This document shows, piece by piece, positions 2,821-35,285 of a DNA stretch of 64,000 nucleotides. Position 1 is the first letter of the stretch; the number at the start of each line of letters is the position of its first letter. Source of the stretch: Nitrospirota bacterium (GTDB taxonomy: Bacteria > Nitrospirota > UBA9217); NCBI GenBank assembly GCA_963663225.1, contig OY760142.1:2720001-2784000 (forward strand), written 5' to 3'. The notes below the pieces were generated by a model, which made no database searches, was not told the DNA's origin, and saw only the letters and a list, made by a program, of their open reading frames with translations. Both the position numbers and the translations under genes were made by a program.

Positions 2821-2990
2821 GACGGGCATGTTACGCCTTTTCGTGATGCCAGACATTCCTCGTCTTTTTTCTAAACCCTGGCAGTCTCAATCCCTGCGAC
2901 ATGCAATCACCCGGTTTCAGCCGAGGGAGGATTGCAGCAAGTCGCGGGAGCCGGAGGGGCTCCACGACAGTATTACATGAGGAGGATGTG

Positions 2991-4493
2991 TTGGAAAGAC
3001 AAAAGGGGACAATTGAAGGAATTGCGGACAAAGTCTGGAAGTTTTTCGCTTCCGTCAAACTTGCCGTTGTGCTGCTTATCATCCTGGCCCTTGTCTCGAT
3101 CATCGGCACAGTGATCCAGCAAAACGAACCGCCGGATCGTTATCTGCAGGAGTACAGTCTGTCCACGGTCCGGTTCTTTAATATGCTCGGTCTGTTCGAC
3201 ATGTATCATACCTGGTGGTTTGTTCTGCTCCTCGTTCTTCTTACTGCAAATCTTACGGTCTGTACACTCGAGCGATTGCCTCATACCTGGAACATTGTAA
3301 AGTCGCCCCTTCGGCCTCTCGATGGCGAGGCCGAAAAGGCGCTCCCTTACAGAACAGAATTGCATCTTCAGGAGGGACGGATACAAGCCAGTGAACGGGC
3401 TCTGCAGGCGCTTACTTCGCTCCGCTATCCCGTGACCGAGCTCCAGGATTCTGAATCGATACAGTTCCTGTCACAAAAAGGCGTCTACAGCAGAATGGGA
3501 GTGTATATTACCCATTTCAGCATTATCCTCATTTTTATCGGAGCATTGACCGGCGTTTTTTTCGGATTTAAGGCTTTTTTGAGCCTTCCGGAGGGTGCCG
3601 CACAGAAAGTTGTTTATCTTCGGAATGAGCCTTTATGGGACAGAATACTGTCGTCTTTCGGTATTGCAGAAAGCCGTGTCCAATGGGACCCGGAAGCGGA
3701 GCTGCCGACCATGCCGCTCGGCTTTTTTGTACAGTGCGATGAATTCGACGTTGATTATTATATCAATGCATCTGGAATCCCGACCGGCATGCCGTCAGAG
3801 TATCACAGCACGCTCAGTATTTTCGACCTCAGCGGGAAAATAGTTTTGAGCAAACGCATTACGGTAAATGACCCGCTTACTTACAACGGCGTTACATTTT
3901 ACCAGTCCTCCTACGGCACAATGCCGAACACGCCTGGCAAAATCGTTCTGAACATCCGTCAAAAAAACAGTACGACAGGCGAACAGGTCGTTGTTGATCT
4001 CGGCGGTTCCCAATACGTTTCCTCCATCGACAGAACGGTTACCGTCCTTGGGTTCGCTCCATTCGGAATTCGGGACTTCGCAACGGACCAGGTCATGCTT
4101 TTTCGCGCCGAACACGGTGAGTATATTAATCCTGCCGTTCAGCTGCAGGTTTCTAAAGGCAAAAAACCATTATATACAACCGAAATTCTAAAAACCGACC
4201 GGGGAATGCCTTATATGCCGGAAGACTATACGATCACCCTGGTGCGCTACGCAGGAACGAGATATACGGGATTGCAGGTCACCAAGGATCCCGGAGTATG
4301 GATTGTGTACACCGGCTTTGTCCTGCTTTGCATCGGCCCGCTCATAGCCTTTTTCGGATCGCATAGAAAACTCTGGATTACAATCCAGGAACGCAACGGA
4401 CAGGCAATCATAAGGATCTCGGGTACGGTAAATAAGAACCGTCCAGGGTTCGAACGTGAATTCAAAAAAATAGTTGATGTGATTTCGAAATAA
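2991..4493 (+). CDS. resB: Cytochrome c biogenesis system II protein ResB/CcsB
   Basis: FFASVKLA...SIIGTVIQQ, DMYHTWWF, YITHFS, VNDPLTYNG, YQSSY, TGLQVTKDPG; start moved to TTG 2991 behind GGAGG (2981-2985). Confidence 0.92.
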   Translation: MERQKGTIEGIADKVWKFFASVKLAVVLLIILALVSIIGTVIQQNEPPDRYLQEYSLSTVRFFNMLGLFDMYHTWWFVLLLVLLTANLTVCTLERLPHTWNIVKSPLRPLDGEAEKALPYRTELHLQEGRIQASERALQALTSLRYPVTELQDSESIQFLSQKGVYSRMGVYITHFSIILIFIGALTGVFFGFKAFLSLPEGAAQKVVYLRNEPLWDRILSSFGIAESRVQWDPEAELPTMPLGFFVQCDEFDVDYYINASGIPTGMPSEYHSTLSIFDLSGKIVLSKRITVNDPLTYNGVTFYQSSYGTMPNTPGKIVLNIRQKNSTTGEQVVVDLGGSQYVSSIDRTVTVLGFAPFGIRDFATDQVMLFRAEHGEYINPAVQLQVSKGKKPLYTTEILKTDRGMPYMPEDYTITLVRYAGTRYTGLQVTKDPGVWIVYTGFVLLCIGPLIAFFGSHRKLWITIQERNGQAIIRISGTVNKNRPGFEREFKKIVDVISK

Positions 4494-4504
4494 TCTGCAG
4501 GAGG

Positions 4505-5755
4505 ATGAGTGCTATGGAAAGCTCCTTGCTTTTTACCTTAGCCACACTGGCATATTTGACGGCCATGGTTCTTTATATTTGCTTCCTGGCGTTCCGCAAA
4601 GGAAACATAGGTTTGGCGGCCACCGTGGTTACTGCGTCCGGTTTTATCGTGCAGACCGCGGCCCTGCTGCTTCGCTGGTGGGAATCCTATCAAATGGAGA
4701 TCGGCAGGATCCCTTTGTCGAATCTGTATGAATCCCTGGTGTTCTTCACCTGGAGCACCGTGCTTATTTATCTGATTGTCGAGTTCAGATACAAGACAAG
4801 AGCGTTCGGCGCTTTCGTGATGCCGCTTGCCTTTCTCGCTCTGGCGTTTATCAATGTTGCCGGCGTCAATGCCGATATCACCCCCCTGGTTCCCGCACTC
4901 AAGAGCAACTGGCTGTTCTATCATGTATTGGTCTGCTTCCTCGGTTATGCTGCATTCGGCATAGCCTTTGCGGTCAGTCTCCTGTACCTTCTGCTGGATG
5001 TGAAGGAAAAAGGTCCTGTTCTTCCCATGGCGTGCAGCATGGGAGGGATTATCGTCATGGCCTCACTTGGATATTACCTGACGGGTCTGGGCGAGGGCAT
5101 GAAAAAAGTTTATTGGATGGGGCTTGGCATCATGGTGCTTGCCTGGTTCATTTATCTGGTCGTGGCGGGAGTTAAAAACAAATCTCAGTTATTCCTGTTC
5201 TGGTGTCTTTGCGTAACGCTGGCAGTCGGACTGCTGATTGCCATGGGGATTGACTTCATATCGTTCTCACTACAGCCTCTTGCCAAAGGAGAATCGCTTA
5301 AAAACCATCTTTTTGAAGCGACGTTTCTTCACGATTCCACCGGGGTTATACTGATCAGCTGGGCCGCCGTGCTTTTCCTGTTCTGGCTTGTCTGGTCACA
5401 GGGCTTGCGGCTCAGGAATCTGCTTGAACAGTACATACCGGCGCCGGATCAGCTGGACGATGTCACCTACCGTATGATTGCGATCGGATGGCCGCTCCTG
5501 ACCGCCGGCATTCTTACCGGAGCGGTATGGGCAAACAGCGCGTGGGGATCGTACTGGAGCTGGGACCCGAAGGAAACCTGGTCGCTGATCACGTGGTTCA
5601 TCTATGCGATCTATCTCCATTCGCGCTATGTGCGAGGCTGGAAGGGAACGCAGATGGCCGTTATTTCAGCGGTAGGTTTTTTGGCTGTTATTTTCACGTT
5701 TTTGGGGGTCAATCTGGTGCTCTCCGGCCTGCATTCGTACGGTGGAATGAATTAA
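4505..5755 (+). CDS. ccsA: Cytochrome c biogenesis system II heme-handling protein CcsA/ResC
   Basis: WWD domain WGSYWSWDPKETW; PLSNLYES, LVPALKSNWL, GLHSY; follows resB. Confidence 0.95.
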   Translation: MSAMESSLLFTLATLAYLTAMVLYICFLAFRKGNIGLAATVVTASGFIVQTAALLLRWWESYQMEIGRIPLSNLYESLVFFTWSTVLIYLIVEFRYKTRAFGAFVMPLAFLALAFINVAGVNADITPLVPALKSNWLFYHVLVCFLGYAAFGIAFAVSLLYLLLDVKEKGPVLPMACSMGGIIVMASLGYYLTGLGEGMKKVYWMGLGIMVLAWFIYLVVAGVKNKSQLFLFWCLCVTLAVGLLIAMGIDFISFSLQPLAKGESLKNHLFEATFLHDSTGVILISWAAVLFLFWLVWSQGLRLRNLLEQYIPAPDQLDDVTYRMIAIGWPLLTAGILTGAVWANSAWGSYWSWDPKETWSLITWFIYAIYLHSRYVRGWKGTQMAVISAVGFLAVIFTFLGVNLVLSGLHSYGGMN

Positions 5756-5831: not shown

Positions 5832-6959
5832 TTATTTTTTCACGCTGAAACAAAAAACGGTTCCCTCTTTCTCCGAGGTGGTGAAATCCACCGCTCCTCC
5901 CAAAATATCCTCACCGAACAGTTTCATGGAAAATGTTCCAAGCCCTCTTCCGATTTTTGCCTTTGTGCTGAAATTTCGCTGAAATATTCTTCGTGCAACG
6001 TCAGGGGGAATCGACTTTCTGTTCCATACAAGGAAATTAATTTTATCCTCCGACGGTTCGCACCAAACTCTTACTTCATCTCCTTCCGGGGTCTCTTCAA
6101 AAGCATTTATAATCATATTGGTAAGTATTTTCAGCAGCAGGGACGGCTCCGTGTTGAGGGCAATATTTACATCGTCTTTCGGCAGCACGAGTGACTTGTT
6201 CTTTGAAGCAGCATGATTCCCGAACAATGCTTTGAGTTCTTGAAATATCTGCGTGACGGAGATTACCGTATAAATCGGCTGATAGGCTGTCGTGCCGGTA
6301 TTACTGAGGCACTGTTGGACCGATATTTCGCTCATCAGTCTTAATGAACAAGTTTGTATAGTGCGGGACAAATCGCGAATCTCGTCCGTATCCATGCTTT
6401 TGGAAAGGAGATGGCAGGCGCCATGAAGTCCGGTGATGATTCCGTTGATATCATGAAAAAACACCCGTTCCAGCGCGGTTAGTCTTTGCTGATAGGTAAT
6501 ATCCTGCAGGAACAGGAGCAGCAGGCGTTTTTGTTCATACTGTATCGGAACACATCGTACCCGAAAAAACAGATCGCGATTACTATTTTCTTTCGTAGTA
6601 ATGGCGCATTCCTTTTCAGCCGGTATGTCCGATGTCAGGCTCGTAACAATGGATATTGCTGCACCGCATGTCGAGCAGTATTTGCTTGTTCCGCACCCGG
6701 CCGGCATTTCATCGGCGTGCACGCACTTCAGCGCCTCTCCGGGGCGAAACCCCAATACGGCTTCGACATCGTCTATTTTCAGCATTTCGAGCAGCATGCT
6801 GTTCACAGCAAGGATCTGCCGTTGGCTGTTCAGTACCGCCAGAAGACCGCTGACGGAATGAAGCAAGCCGTCAATGACGGAATTGTTGCTGATAAACTCA
6901 ATCTCGTTCTTTAACTCGTCTTCAGATGACCGGTCAGGAGTCGCAAAATAGGTGTCCAT
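5832..6959 (-). CDS. Cytoplasmic sensor histidine kinase with Cys-rich PAS-like input domain
   Basis: H-box FFHDING, N-box NMIINA, F-box IFQRNFSTK, G2 GRGLG; input motif C-x9-C-x5-C-x2-C. Confidence 0.85.
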   Translation of the reverse strand: MDTYFATPDRSSEDELKNEIEFISNNSVIDGLLHSVSGLLAVLNSQRQILAVNSMLLEMLKIDDVEAVLGFRPGEALKCVHADEMPAGCGTSKYCSTCGAAISIVTSLTSDIPAEKECAITTKENSNRDLFFRVRCVPIQYEQKRLLLLFLQDITYQQRLTALERVFFHDINGIITGLHGACHLLSKSMDTDEIRDLSRTIQTCSLRLMSEISVQQCLSNTGTTAYQPIYTVISVTQIFQELKALFGNHAASKNKSLVLPKDDVNIALNTEPSLLLKILTNMIINAFEETPEGDEVRVWCEPSEDKINFLVWNRKSIPPDVARRIFQRNFSTKAKIGRGLGTFSMKLFGEDILGGAVDFTTSEKEGTVFCFSVKK

Positions 6960-7406
6960 GGCGGTTTCCTTTCAAGTCAGGCAACGGGATAGGAATGGTC
7001 TCTCAAGTATATCAGGAGCGTGACCGTGACGCGGCAAACAAAAACTTCTTGGGTATATTTACCAAAAAATTATTGTATTTTCAATAAAAAAATGCATCAT
7101 ATGCGAGACAAAAACAAATTGGCGATATGTTTGTCCTAGATGCGTACGCGGTTGTGAGGGTAGCTTACAGCTTTGGAGAAAGGGATTACGTTTTCCCGCG
7201 TTTCAAGCTCTACCTTCGAAGCTTCAGAGGATGAAATATTCCAATACTTTTGCCCGATGCCAGCTGTCTGCGCATGGTCGCAAAACGGTAACCTGCGATA
7301 AGTACCAGCAGGCAGACGACACCTAAAACAAGCATGGAGCCGATGAATTCATTTATTGTATCAATGGGTTAGTAATATCTTTGCTGTCGTGATGTTCACA
7401 TACTGG

Positions 7407-8741
7407 CTAGTCGTGTGCTGCGCCATTGTTCTGGACGGCGTGGTACAGCCGCTGAACAAGGGCCTGATTAAAGCCGTGTGAGGTCATGTTGGCGATGATG
7501 CGTCCTTTGATGGGGAGTCCGAGGAGATACAGGTCTCCAATCAGGTCCAATATCTTGTGCCGCACGAATTCGTCGGAATATCTGAGCTTTGTATTAATGA
7601 CCTTGCCGTCATACATGATGATGTGGGAGTTAAGGTATCCACCGCCGACTTTTCCGAGTTTTTGCGCCATTTCGATATTCTCAAAGGTATTGAATGACCG
7701 GGCTGGAGCAATCTCTTTTGTGAAGGAATTGTTTTGAGGATTGAACGTCAGAACCTGTTCTCCGATGGGCAGCGGGTAGTCAACCCGCATTGATATTTCG
7801 AATCCATCAAAGGGCTCTACATAAATATGCTTTTCGTGCTTCTGCTCATTGCCCACACCGATTTTTTTGAGGACGACGGCAAGCTTGGTTTGGGCGTTCT
7901 GCTCTTCTATTCCGGCTTCTTCTATCAATACGCAAAAATCTTTGGCGGAACCGTCAATATTCGGGATCTCTTCTTCGACCTTGATGAGTACGTTGGTTAT
8001 GCCGTACATCGAAAGCGCGGCCATCAGGTGCTCAACGGTGCGCACCCGCCTCCTCCCGTTGTCCAGAATGGTAGAATTTGCCGAGAAGGTTTTTAATGGC
8101 GCTGTTTTTGAGAAGTCATCGAGAGAGGTAATATGGCCGGGTATGGTTTGACCGTCAAGCGTTTGAAAGACGATGCCTTCATCGGTCCCGAGGGGACTGA
8201 GGATGATGCCTGTATTTTTGCCGCTCAGCAGGCCTATGCCGTTCAGAACCACATTTCCCTTAAGCGTGCGCTGGCGTACCGGTGAATCAACCACCTCTAC
8301 CATGCCGGGCGGAACAGAAAGATCGGTGCTGACAATCTCGAGCCTCGTATCCGACGGCAGGGCTGTGTCGTCTCCGGCAGGAGTGTGCTTCAGGGCCGAT
8401 TCAACCTTGTCGAGCAGCACTTCCAGATGCAGCGGTTTTTCGAGGAAATCATATGCGCCTGCTTTTATGGCGGCGACTGCGGCTTCGATGCCGGCATGTC
8501 CGCTCATCATGATGACGGGGAGGGCAGGAAAGCGGTCGTGCAGCCGTTTCAGGAGCTGCATGCCGTCAATGCCGGGAAGCCAGACATCCAGCAGAACGAG
8601 GGATGGCTCCATGGTATCAAGACTTTGCCAGAGACTTTCCGCGTCCGGAAAGATAAGGGTCTGGTATCCCTCATCCTTCAGGATGCCCGCTACGGTGGTA
8701 CAGATAGAAGACTCATCATCAACTATGCAGATAGGGTTCAT
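7407..8741 (-). CDS. lpxC: Response-regulator receiver domain fused to UDP-3-O-acyl-GlcNAc deacetylase LpxC
   Basis: REC: IVDDE, LLDVWLPG, MMSGH, FLEKP. LpxC: RQRTLK, GIGLLSG, TVEHLMAAL, EIPNIDGSA, EIAPARSF, EFVRHKILDLIGDL, TSH. Start moved to ATG 8741 (AGGA SD), downstream of the promoter at 8789-8817. Confidence 0.9.
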   Translation of the reverse strand: MNPICIVDDESSICTTVAGILKDEGYQTLIFPDAESLWQSLDTMEPSLVLLDVWLPGIDGMQLLKRLHDRFPALPVIMMSGHAGIEAAVAAIKAGAYDFLEKPLHLEVLLDKVESALKHTPAGDDTALPSDTRLEIVSTDLSVPPGMVEVVDSPVRQRTLKGNVVLNGIGLLSGKNTGIILSPLGTDEGIVFQTLDGQTIPGHITSLDDFSKTAPLKTFSANSTILDNGRRRVRTVEHLMAALSMYGITNVLIKVEEEIPNIDGSAKDFCVLIEEAGIEEQNAQTKLAVVLKKIGVGNEQKHEKHIYVEPFDGFEISMRVDYPLPIGEQVLTFNPQNNSFTKEIAPARSFNTFENIEMAQKLGKVGGGYLNSHIIMYDGKVINTKLRYSDEFVRHKILDLIGDLYLLGLPIKGRIIANMTSHGFNQALVQRLYHAVQNNGAAHD

Positions 8742-8788
8742 ATTTGGTTGTCCTATGGTCCCTTCCGGCCTGAGATTAAAGTGGTGAT

Positions 8789-8817
8789 AGTGTAAGATGT
8801 TGCCGGACATTTGTCAA
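8789..8817 (-). promoter_or_regulatory. Sigma70-type promoter of the REC-lpxC gene
   Basis: Minus strand TTGACA-N17-TACACT. Confidence 0.7.
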
Positions 8818-8868
8818 GGACATGCTGCTTATCAAGGTATTTGCTGAATTGCAGTGAGGAGGCGTCCT

Positions 8869-10197
8869 TTAGTCCATTGACGACAGCATTCGTCCAGACC
8901 ACCATATCCCGACGCACCCGGCCAAAATGTCAGTCGCGAACCTGCCCCAGAATATTCCGTTAAGTCCTAATAAGGCACTTCCTGCTATGGATAGAGGTAT
9001 TAGCAATACTGCCACCCGTATGATGTTGAGTGCGGACGCCTGCAAGGGCCTGTGTGTCCCTGTCAGTGAAAATCCTGCATAGCGGTGTATCTCAAGCATG
9101 CCGTATCCCATGCACGTAATGTAAATATAGGAACACAAGATATCAATAACGCTCTTCTCGGAAGAGAAAAATTCTGCCATGGATTCGGCAAAAATAAGGA
9201 ACAAACAACCGATAAAAATGCCGTACAGCAGGGCAAATGTCATGGTGCCTTTTCTCGCCAGCCTGATTCTGTCCATTCTTCCGGCGCCGTAGTTCTGGGC
9301 CACAAAAGGAATAAGCGACATGCCGACGGTCATGGGTATCATGAAGGCGAACATTTCTATTCTGCCTGCCACGCCCAGCGCGGCGACGGCCTCGTTGCCG
9401 AAACCTGCTGCGAGTCTGGTAATAACGGCGGACGACAGCGGAGTCAATATCATGCCGAGGGCTCCGGGTATACTGAATTTCAGGATGCTGTGCCATGATC
9501 GAAAAAGCAGGCCTGGTTTTATGGTGCTGATATCTATCAAGCTCATTTTTTTCGCCACAATGTAAAAAGCAGCCGCAAGGGTGACCGTTTGGGCGAGTAT
9601 CGTTGCGACAGCAGCGCCGGCGATATTCATTTTCGGCAAGCCGAATCTGCCGAAAATAAGCCCCATATCCAGAACGATATTTATTGCAGTACTGCCGACC
9701 ATGAGCATACTGACGGCCTTTGTATTCCCGGTGCTTATGATGATGTCGGAAACAACGATTTGAAGCACCATAATGAACGAGCCCCAGTACCAGATTTCCA
9801 TATACTGTGCAGTCATCTCGAGTACCGCGCCGGATGCACCCAGCCTGGAGAAAAGAGGCGTGATGGTGAGCAGCCCCAGAACAGATATGAGGGCGCCGAA
9901 AAGAACGGAAAGGATAATTGCGTGCGTTGTAACTGTTGCCGCTTTTTTGTGATCTTTCCCGCCTATGGCATGGGCGACGAGCGTCATTACTCCGCTTCCG
10001 AGCCCCCGGCTGAGCAGCATAAGCAGCATTACAACAGGGAACGTAAAAGAAATAGCCGCAAGCGCTTCGGTCCCGAGCTGGGACACGAACCAGGCGTTCG
10101 TGAGGTTATACATATTCATGGCAAAAGTGCCTGCGAGCATCGGCACGGCCATTTTGACAATTACGTTCAGTACATGTCCTTGTATAAGTTTTGACAT
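8869..10197 (-). CDS. MATE family efflux transporter
   Basis: About 12 TM; LGTEALAAI, GIAGAA-like NIAGAAVAT, FGNEAVAALG, AQNYGAG. Confidence 0.9.
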   Translation of the reverse strand: MSKLIQGHVLNVIVKMAVPMLAGTFAMNMYNLTNAWFVSQLGTEALAAISFTFPVVMLLMLLSRGLGSGVMTLVAHAIGGKDHKKAATVTTHAIILSVLFGALISVLGLLTITPLFSRLGASGAVLEMTAQYMEIWYWGSFIMVLQIVVSDIIISTGNTKAVSMLMVGSTAINIVLDMGLIFGRFGLPKMNIAGAAVATILAQTVTLAAAFYIVAKKMSLIDISTIKPGLLFRSWHSILKFSIPGALGMILTPLSSAVITRLAAGFGNEAVAALGVAGRIEMFAFMIPMTVGMSLIPFVAQNYGAGRMDRIRLARKGTMTFALLYGIFIGCLFLIFAESMAEFFSSEKSVIDILCSYIYITCMGYGMLEIHRYAGFSLTGTHRPLQASALNIIRVAVLLIPLSIAGSALLGLNGIFWGRFATDILAGCVGIWWSGRMLSSMD

Positions 10198-33989: not shown

Positions 33990-35285
33990 ATGAGATTCGT
34001 AGTGACTTTCATGGCTGCTGCTGTTGTTATTTTCGTCGTGCTGCTGAAGGAGATTAATCAGGGAACGATTACCGTTTACCTTCTGCCTTCAAAGTCCTAT
34101 GAAGTTTCAAAGACGGTTTTTTTCCTCCTGTCGTTTGCCATCGGTGCGGGCATAATCCTCTTTTTATATCTGCTTCGCGATATCAGGCGGTTTCTGCGCG
34201 GGCTCAAAGTGCAGCGAGAACAGAAAAAACGCCTTAAGATTCAAGAGCTTTACTCGAAGGGCTTAAATGCCCTGCTTGCGAAACGGAATGCTGACGCGGC
34301 CAGGTTTTTTCAAAAAATTCTTACCATCGACCCCAATCATGTAGACACGCTCCTCCGGCTCGGAATCAGCCAGCTCAGACAAAAAAATCTGCAGGAGGCT
34401 ATTGCTACCCATCAGAAAGCGCTGAATCTAGAGCATGACAATCAGGAGGTTATGTTCTCGCTGGCAGCAGATTATGAAGAGTCGAAACGCTATGATGACG
34501 CTCTTATGATGTACAAGAAGATCCTTTCCAAGGATTCCTCCAATCTGACCGCGCTTATGCGAATGAGGGATCTCTACCAGCGTCAGAACAACTGGGCGGA
34601 GCTGTGCGATACACAGACCCAGCTGCTTGCAAGCCCGCTTACTCCGACTGAGCGTGACATCGAGCACCGGAGACTGGTCGGTTTCAAGTATGAATACGGC
34701 CGCTCCCTTCTTGAGTCCGGAGAATTCGATCGGGCCAGAAAAATATTCCGGGGTGTAATTAAACTGGATAAGGACTTTATTCCCGCGTATCTGGGGCTGG
34801 GAGAGGTTTATCTCGAAGAGGGAAAAACCAAGGAAGCAGGGGCCCTGTGGGAGAAAGCCTACAAAATAACATCGTCTCCCTTATTGCTGCATCGTCTTGA
34901 AGATTTCTTTTTGAAACTGGGAGAGCCTGCCAAGGCAATCGAAATTTATACCCGGGCTTTGTCCTGGCGGCCGCAGGACGCTGAGCTCAAGTTCTTTCTC
35001 GGTAAACTCTATTACCGGCTGGAAATGGTTGATGAAGCATTTGATGTTCTGGCATCCGCTGACTGGGGTGACCGGGAATATCCGGACGTGCACAAACTGC
35101 TCGGAAATATCTACCTCCGCCGGGGATCACTGGGTCTTGCTTCATCGGAATTCAAAAAGGCCCTTGGCTTTAAAAAGCAGATCATCGTGCCCTACGTCTG
35201 CTCGAATTGCAATGTTCAATCCCCTCAATGGTCCGGGCGTTGCCAGAACTGCGGGAAATGGAACACGTTCAGTGTCAAACTGTAG
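33990..35285 (+). CDS. lapB: LPS assembly protein LapB-like (TPRs plus rubredoxin-like tail) with N-terminal LapA-like domain
   Basis: Two N-terminal TM helices, TPR array, C-terminal YVCSNC...WSGRCQNCGKWNT. Confidence 0.75.
   Translation: MRFVVTFMAAAVVIFVVLLKEINQGTITVYLLPSKSYEVSKTVFFLLSFAIGAGIILFLYLLRDIRRFLRGLKVQREQKKRLKIQELYSKGLNALLAKRNADAARFFQKILTIDPNHVDTLLRLGISQLRQKNLQEAIATHQKALNLEHDNQEVMFSLAADYEESKRYDDALMMYKKILSKDSSNLTALMRMRDLYQRQNNWAELCDTQTQLLASPLTPTERDIEHRRLVGFKYEYGRSLLESGEFDRARKIFRGVIKLDKDFIPAYLGLGEVYLEEGKTKEAGALWEKAYKITSSPLLLHRLEDFFLKLGEPAKAIEIYTRALSWRPQDAELKFFLGKLYYRLEMVDEAFDVLASADWGDREYPDVHKLLGNIYLRRGSLGLASSEFKKALGFKKQIIVPYVCSNCNVQSPQWSGRCQNCGKWNTFSVKL

Follow-up and report, generated by a model that had tools for sequence, protein, structure and literature searches.

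The analysed stretch, referred to here as the window, comprises 64,000 nucleotides of a Nitrospirota bacterium (assembly GCA_963663225.1, contig OY760142.1, positions 2,720,001 to 2,784,000 of the forward strand) and harbours on its minus strand a gene in which a response-regulator receiver domain (REC) is joined in frame to LpxC. The latter enzyme catalyzes the step by which lipid A production becomes committed, represents a control point of lipopolysaccharide (LPS) synthesis and is a long-standing antibiotic target. The following features were assigned to the fusion gene, with residues numbered according to its longest open reading frame (ORF) of 467 amino acids (aa):

7407..8741, minus strand: gene of the REC-LpxC fusion, encoding 444 aa when read from its likely start (ATG 8741), unbroken in an independent contig
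7407..8810, minus strand: longest ORF of the fusion gene, 467 aa
8403..8732, minus strand: NtrX-type receiver, residues 27-136 (Pfam PF00072; D31/D32, D75, W77, S103, K125)
8274..8402, minus strand: linker from receiver to LpxC, residues 137-179, about 40 residues, at the place of AAA+ and helix-turn-helix (HTH) domains in longer relatives
7443..8273, minus strand: LpxC deacetylase domain, residues 180-456 (Pfam PF03331 with 252 bits, TIGR00325, solved LpxC chains)
8789..8817, minus strand: promoter-like site TTGACA-17-TACACT upstream of ATG 8741, 10 of 12 matches

The true start of the fusion is probably the ATG at 8741 (M24 of the 467-aa ORF), because homologues begin at MNPIC, an AGGA is located 9 nt upstream and the promoter-like site falls inside the longer ORF. 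Promoter-like sites around the start amounted to three, as compared to 3.7 +/- 2.2 in shuffled sequence. Since their number does not exceed that of shuffled sequence, TTGACA-17-TACACT, the one strong site among them, is regarded as no more than a plausible promoter of the fusion, and so is the "own promoter" claimed in a preliminary description of the locus. The same description had named an assembly artefact as one way in which its proposal could fail. An origin of the fusion from assembly or gene calling is, however, practically negligible as an explanation: both Pfam domains are present in all 120 homologues among the matches listed (81-99% identity), full-length copies occur in 11 related genomes, and positions 7220 to 9000 of the window are matched without a gap by a contig of 39,979 nt that was obtained independently in another study. 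The receiver-LpxC fusion is confirmed as real. Likewise, the claimed in-frame arrangement holds at the level of Pfam and NCBIfam domains as well as of the phospho-acceptor and catalytic residues, all of which are intact.

Receiver domains share an acidic pair, a phospho-acceptor Asp, a conserved Ser/Thr and a Lys. The complete set is present in the fusion (acidic pair D31/D32, phospho-acceptor D75 within LLDVW, S103 and K125), which matches PF00072 (Response_reg) with 98.4 bits (curated cut-off 30.2). An alignment of 29 diverse fusions showed no substitution at W77, S103, K125 or P126, and for D31, D32 and D75 the conservation amounts to 90% or more. NtrX was the best NCBIfam receiver match (114 bits), and the closest of the 42 receivers in the window genome belongs to an NtrX-like activator (99.4 bits versus 82.8 for the next). 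A tree of 86 receivers placed the 37 fused ones together with 9 from NtrX and apart from the remaining 40, which belong to the window genome (SH-aLRT 83). Moreover, the motifs DEGY/F, D-[IV]-W-[LM]-P, SGH and EKP are common to the window clade, to fusions located next to ntrY and to ntrY-adjacent NtrX, and are absent from six other receivers of the window genome. By these sequence criteria the receiver of the fusion is of the NtrX type, and its intact residues predict that it is phosphorylated by a histidine kinase.

In LpxC, zinc is coordinated by two His and one Asp, a Glu serves as general base and a further His is located late in the sequence. The C-terminal domain of the fusion scored 217.3 bits against TIGR00325, the NCBIfam lpxC equivalog (cut-off 187.25), and aligned to solved LpxC chains (E 5e-44) with E260, H261, H418, D422, D426 and H445 matching. 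Every fused LpxC domain in the comparison (48 of 48) retains these residues and K419. Signature residues of the fused group within this domain are G201, L207, Y269, K277, C293 and A440.

A HMMER search over 1.84 billion representatives returned 573 proteins at E <= 1e-30, the best 150 of which were parsed and ten scanned with Pfam. Three architectures were found among these best 150 of 573: receiver and LpxC only (420-460 aa), receiver, HTH_8 and LpxC (about 490-505 aa), and receiver, Sigma54_activat AAA+, HTH_8 and LpxC (650-736 aa), the latter two layouts being confirmed by Pfam. The long forms originate from metagenome-assembled genomes (MAGs) of Nitrospinota and Entotheonellia and are named either NtrX or LpxC by their sources. 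None of the 18 long or AAA+-bearing forms inspected contains GAFTGA, the motif contacting sigma-54; in one of the long forms (P0124), read by eye, Walker A is present and the Asp-Glu of Walker B reads Asp-Gly. NtrX proper likewise possesses an AAA+ domain without GAFTGA.

In a quick, unrooted maximum-likelihood tree of 107 LpxC domains, 58 stand-alone LpxC proteins and one extended at its N-terminus grouped in a clade of their own (59 rows, SH-aLRT 98), outside of which all 43 fused domains and 5 fragments were placed. REC-LpxC rows are interleaved with AAA+-LpxC rows, which fits a repeated loss of AAA+ and HTH. Pfam detected neither the AAA+ nor the Fis-type HTH domain of the longer relatives in the window protein, which would thus be a descendant of NtrX rather than a member of the NtrX family, i.e., a reduced NtrX-LpxC fusion retaining the NtrX-type receiver, a disordered linker and LpxC. 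Partial disorder of the linker is predicted by AlphaFold (pLDDT <50 at model residues 123-135, corresponding to 145-157 of the 467-aa ORF). No paper describing a receiver-LpxC or NtrX-LpxC fusion was found in a search that left most subscription journals and supplementary files outside, so that a mention in a domain-architecture census is possible.

Besides the survey of REC-LpxC architectures, which thereby revealed a large family with three layouts and apparent NtrX descent, the preliminary description had proposed a check for a second lpxC. A search of the window genome (a 3.26-Mb single contig) with PF03331 gave two matches, the fusion (253.8 bits) and the following gene:

G000:C1:961196-962113, strand not given: stand-alone lpxC, 305 aa, PF03331 with 355.7 bits, about 39% identical to the fused domain

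In the window genome the fusion is therefore a paralogue or second isozyme and not the sole enzyme of the committed step. Within the taxonomic family of the window organism, the fusion is present in 16 of 24 genomes, as a full-length gene in 11, truncated by contig ends in 4 and split in one (G016), the proteins of different genera being 77-88% identical; seven genomes of the family hold stand-alone lpxC only. The 16 genomes representing other families of the phylum all lack the fusion. The fusion is the sole PF03331 match in G015 (100% complete, 10 contigs), G007 (89%), G013 (90%) and G017 (98%), and also in G043 (complete chromosome), G044 and G045, which were reached via loci that bear the labels "bacterium", Oligoflexales and Deltaproteobacteria. 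The split fusion of G016 consists of two pieces that overlap (G016:C14:235013-236330), one of which contains an internal TAG, whereas the stand-alone lpxC of this genome is intact, a state that resembles the decay of a redundant copy into a pseudogene. The occurrence of both genes, of either one alone or of a broken fusion within one family is the pattern expected of redundant isozymes.

These distributions bear on the question of whether the fused domain might be a paralogue that has diverged towards a different N-acetylated substrate, or a ligand-binding module, rather than a lipid A deacetylase. Such a role would agree with the position of the fused domains outside the stand-alone LpxC clade, with their own signature residues, with the presence of a stand-alone lpxC in the window genome and with alterations near the substrate site in the window clade (specified below). 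On the other hand, LpxB and LpxK are encoded in four of the genomes in which the fusion is the sole PF03331 match (G015, G007, G043 and G044; neither was found in the fusion-only G017), which argues that the fused domain is a true lipid A deacetylase; the catalytic and zinc-binding residues kept throughout the fused domains and the score above the lpxC equivalog cut-off point in the same direction. A different substrate or a binding role is thus considered improbable, and the fused domain is predicted, on indirect grounds of which the distribution of the two genes within the family is the strongest, to deacetylate the lipid A precursor, with MAG incompleteness as a caveat.

Two further genes of the window genome are relevant to the origin of the phosphoryl group:

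G000:C1:1440598-1442796, strand not given: NtrY-like kinase, 732 aa, NtrY_N with 30.5 bits (cut-off 23.2)
G000:C1:696174-697556, strand not given: NtrX-like sigma-54 activator with GAFTGA, 52-61% identical over its full length to ntrY-adjacent NtrX of other families

A metagenome scan with the long-form alignment yielded 80 loci, 57 of which provide the flank of at least 600 nt needed for upstream counts. NtrY is encoded 23-137 nt upstream of the fusion on the same strand in 16 of 44 REC-LpxC and 4 of 13 NtrX-LpxC loci (20 of 57 in total), and the upstream kinase was confirmed as NtrY by Pfam (NtrY_N, HAMP, PAS, HisKA, HATPase). Five further loci with short flanks hold a 3' fragment of NtrY. 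In the window genome, ntrY (C1:1440598) and the fusion (C1:2727407) are unlinked, located about 1.29 Mb apart, and no regulator was found beside the NtrY-like kinase. A receiver within 1.5 kb of ntrY was found in none of 22 loci of the window's family, as compared to a directly downstream position in all eight loci of other families. From the NtrX type of its receiver, the likeliest phosphodonor of the fusion in the window genome would be the unlinked NtrY-like kinase rather than the Cys-cluster histidine kinase encoded next to the fusion (see below).

Some observations on these genes stand on their own. The NtrX-like activator and ntrY are unlinked in the window's family and adjacent in the other sampled families of the phylum. 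A replacement of NtrX by the fusion in the window's family was considered and rejected, as the genome keeps the NtrX-like activator with GAFTGA; this protein has lost the W, SGH and EKP receiver motifs that the fusion keeps. At three metagenomic loci (L177, L212, L220) a stand-alone lpxC is located directly upstream of ntrY-ntrX on the same strand, forming an unfused cluster. At others (L146-L150, L154, L156-L158) several long NtrX-LpxC genes are followed by purN, by lolA, which encodes the carrier of outer-membrane lipoproteins, and by a gene for an RseP-like M50 protease, an envelope-related neighbourhood.

Taken together, with both domains strongly conserved across a large family, phospho-control of LpxC is the most economical reading. 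It is held with somewhat more confidence than doubt that the window protein is a reduced NtrX-LpxC fusion acting as a phospho-switched deacetylase, i.e., as a signal-gated isozyme beside stand-alone LpxC and with NtrY as donor. Phosphorylation of D75 would switch deacetylase activity, most likely by relief of inhibition, which is favoured because LpxC acts as a monomer. An analogous case is CheB, where phosphorylation relieves inhibition. A two-component signal would in that case set the lipid A flux on the level of the protein, and in the window genome the constitutive stand-alone LpxC would be the housekeeping isozyme and the fusion the signal-gated one.

Several points weigh against this reading. 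With respect to the enzyme, the window clade reads GLLSG instead of the usual GLHSG and ARSFNT instead of the usual ARTFGF near the substrate site, and its LpxC domain carries an insert of about 10 residues relative to the canonical consensus. The AlphaFold model (pTM 0.72) is devoid of confident packing between receiver and enzyme. With respect to the donor, NtrY is not encoded upstream in 28 of 44 REC-LpxC and 9 of 13 NtrX-LpxC loci with sufficient flank; in these 37 loci the fusion is accompanied by other genes, none of them for a kinase. Some of the ntrY-linked loci are related to each other, a yebC-ruvCAB-ntrY arrangement being common to six or more of them, and ntrY is adjacent in none of 20 distinct loci of the window's own clade (55-99% identity). 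NtrY-like orthologues are present in 38 of 41 related genomes, and this near universality in the phylum means that co-occurrence cannot discriminate; the receiver type is thus the one argument for NtrY as donor in the window genome. The receiver tree itself has few columns and modest support. Finally, the fusion family is known from sequences alone.

The lack of confident receiver packing and the disordered linker would also suit a receiver that controls turnover, localisation or partner binding of LpxC, e.g., by phospho-dependent degradation or membrane recruitment in analogy to FtsH/LapB control. Known LpxC control operates mainly via proteolysis or partner proteins according to a 2025 review (PMC12444477), and the window itself encodes a distant LapB-like protein. 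It counts against this alternative that the genes next to the fusion include no conserved adaptor or protease; the alternative shares, however, every genomic observation with the phospho-switched deacetylase and nothing specific stands against it. It is considered unlikely, if not markedly so. A prediction of the complex between receiver (model residues 1-122) and LpxC domain (136-445), both entered as alignments, gave no answer (score 0.00) and speaks neither for nor against contact. The LapB-like protein is a 431-aa TPR protein with a C-terminal zinc ribbon (33990..35285, plus strand), encoded 26 kb from the fusion. It matches the LapB model NF008757 near full length with 102.7 bits (cut-off 363) and may be a distant LapB-like LPS assembly regulator; Zn_ribbon_LapB (PF18073) was matched in 10 of 14 control genomes including Gram-positives and is uninformative on its own.

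The gene next to the fusion on the same strand encodes a histidine kinase, and a gene remnant is located between the two:

5832..6959, minus strand: cytoplasmic histidine kinase, 375 aa, with a Cys-rich PAS-like domain, H169 phospho-acceptor box and HATPase_c
6606..6725, minus strand: Cys cluster of the kinase (C79, C89, C95, C98, C118, with H81)
7136..7352, minus strand: remnant of a 210-aa ORF with N-terminal membrane anchor, start now ATA, 412 nt deleted at about 7220

Pfam assigned HATPase_c to the kinase, together with weak matches to PAS_9 and, around H169, to HisKA. The C-x9-C-x5-C-x2-C motif given in the preliminary description is exact (C79-x9-C89-x5-C95-x2-C98), C118 being an additional Cys. 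In an alignment of 114 sequences the five Cys are without exception retained (100%) and H81 reaches 95%, and it is a fair guess that the kinase binds a metal or Fe-S centre and is a candidate sensor in its own right. A search with its N-terminal domain retrieved 698 proteins (E <= 0.001), the source names of which include Geobacteraceae, Desulfomonile, Desulfonema, Desulfobulbaceae, Syntrophorhabdaceae and Zixibacteria. They represent a family, widely distributed among Desulfobacterota-labelled and other bacteria, of cytoplasmic proteins of about 375 aa that are named simply "histidine kinase" by their sources. Convergent to the kinase gene, ResB and CcsA of system II cytochrome c biogenesis are encoded on the plus strand (2901..5755).

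The kinase may have been recruited in the window genus as cognate kinase of the fusion, thereby coupling a redox or metal signal to LpxC. Both genes lie close by on the same strand in three genomes of the sub-lineage (the window, G004 and G002), neither has another partner nearby, and five invariant Cys in a PAS-like domain are compatible with a metal or Fe-S centre. Comparison across genomes argues against such a pairing. Among 20 other distinct loci, the kinase adjoins the fusion in no more than two, those of the same-genus genomes G004 and G002, where the whole neighbourhood is syntenic: the kinase, MatE, BrkB, ResB and CcsA neighbours recur in both, and none of the 18 other distinct loci has any of them. 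Across the 20 distinct loci no neighbour of the window fusion clade is conserved, and the kinase is adjacent to the fusion in none of the 80 metagenomic loci. Kinase orthologues were identified in 5 of 41 genomes, i.e., in the three syntenic ones, in G006, which is devoid of the fusion, and in G021, where the fusion is located on a different contig; the same-genus fusion carriers G001 (100% complete) and G005 have none. The 447-nt gap between fusion and kinase holds the remnant of a third gene, the 210-aa ORF that intervenes intact in G004 and G002 and whose undeleted form, with 412 extra bases at 7220, is carried by an independent contig (run X5). In addition, members of the kinase family are common in lineages in which the fusion was not observed. 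Recruitment as cognate kinase is thus improbable, and the adjacent Cys-cluster kinase is probably a bystander rather than the partner of the fusion. The preliminary description had envisaged an enzyme-output response regulator linking redox or metal sensing to LPS flux. Its enzyme-output part agrees with the intact phospho-acceptor and catalytic sites, phospho-control as such being a prediction, whereas the pairing with the kinase fails on co-occurrence (the kinase does not track the fusion), leaving the redox or metal input via this kinase without support.

Response regulators with enzymatic output are already a known kind and include the methylesterase CheB, the diguanylate cyclases PleD and WspR, and RpfG. 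Like these proteins, the fusion consists of an N-terminal receiver, a linker and a C-terminal catalytic domain, and the same phospho-control of the enzyme is to be expected. It differs in that its output is a zinc amidase of lipid A biosynthesis, i.e., a core anabolic enzyme and not one of signalling or adaptation, and in that no more than its sequence is known.

Another point of reference is NtrY/NtrX of alphaproteobacteria (Brucella, Rhodobacter sphaeroides, Caulobacter crescentus). The likeness resides in the NtrX-type receiver, in the layout of receiver, AAA+ without GAFTGA and Fis-type HTH kept by the longer fusion relatives, and in the position of the fusion, which in many loci is that of ntrX directly behind ntrY. 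Known NtrX acts on transcription with lpxC as an indirect target, whereas in the fusion LpxC is joined covalently to the receiver; moreover, the window protein has lost AAA+ and HTH entirely, and ntrY is unlinked in the window genome. According to a study on R. sphaeroides, NtrYX is tied to lpxC and the cell envelope, and lpxC transcripts increased 8.8-fold in an ntrYX mutant without NtrX binding at the gene (PMC7240162). The 2025 review treats NtrYX control of lpxC at the level of transcription only, lists ChvGI as likewise transcriptional, and names proteolysis by FtsH/LapB/YejM in enterobacteria, activation by MurA in Pseudomonas and Lon in alphaproteobacteria as further control of LpxC; the words "receiver", "response regulator" and "fusion" are absent from its main text (PMC12444477). 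In these systems control is exerted via proteases or partner proteins, unlike a built-in receiver. Bifunctional LpxC-FabZ fusions (NCBIfam NF009667) are mentioned in a preprint (bioRxiv 10.1101/2025.10.16.682753). They, too, combine LpxC with another domain in one polypeptide, but their partner is a C-terminal metabolic enzyme and that of the window fusion an N-terminal signalling domain. The window protein scored 188 bits against NF009667 (cut-off 465).

The window adds to the fusion family a case in which the fusion occurs beside a stand-alone lpxC, a taxonomic family with both genes or either one alone, and a neighbouring kinase that is a probable bystander. To our knowledge, all characterised control of LpxC proceeds via proteolysis, partner proteins or transcription; a receiver built into LpxC would, if true, be a new and directly testable mode of control. 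The fusion further argues for a functional coupling of lipid A synthesis to NtrYX signalling, on the principle that proteins which are joined in one organism act together in others; the observations on this coupling have so far been no more than indirect, coming from alphaproteobacterial transcriptomes. Since the related genomes carry both genes, stand-alone lpxC only or the fusion only, they lend themselves to the question of what is gained with the regulated form. It is tentatively proposed, with slightly more doubt than confidence, that the whole of outer-membrane biogenesis depends on a two-component phosphorelay in organisms whose sole LpxC is the fusion, and that organisms possessing also a stand-alone LpxC, such as that of the window, would combine a constitutive with a signal-inducible isozyme.

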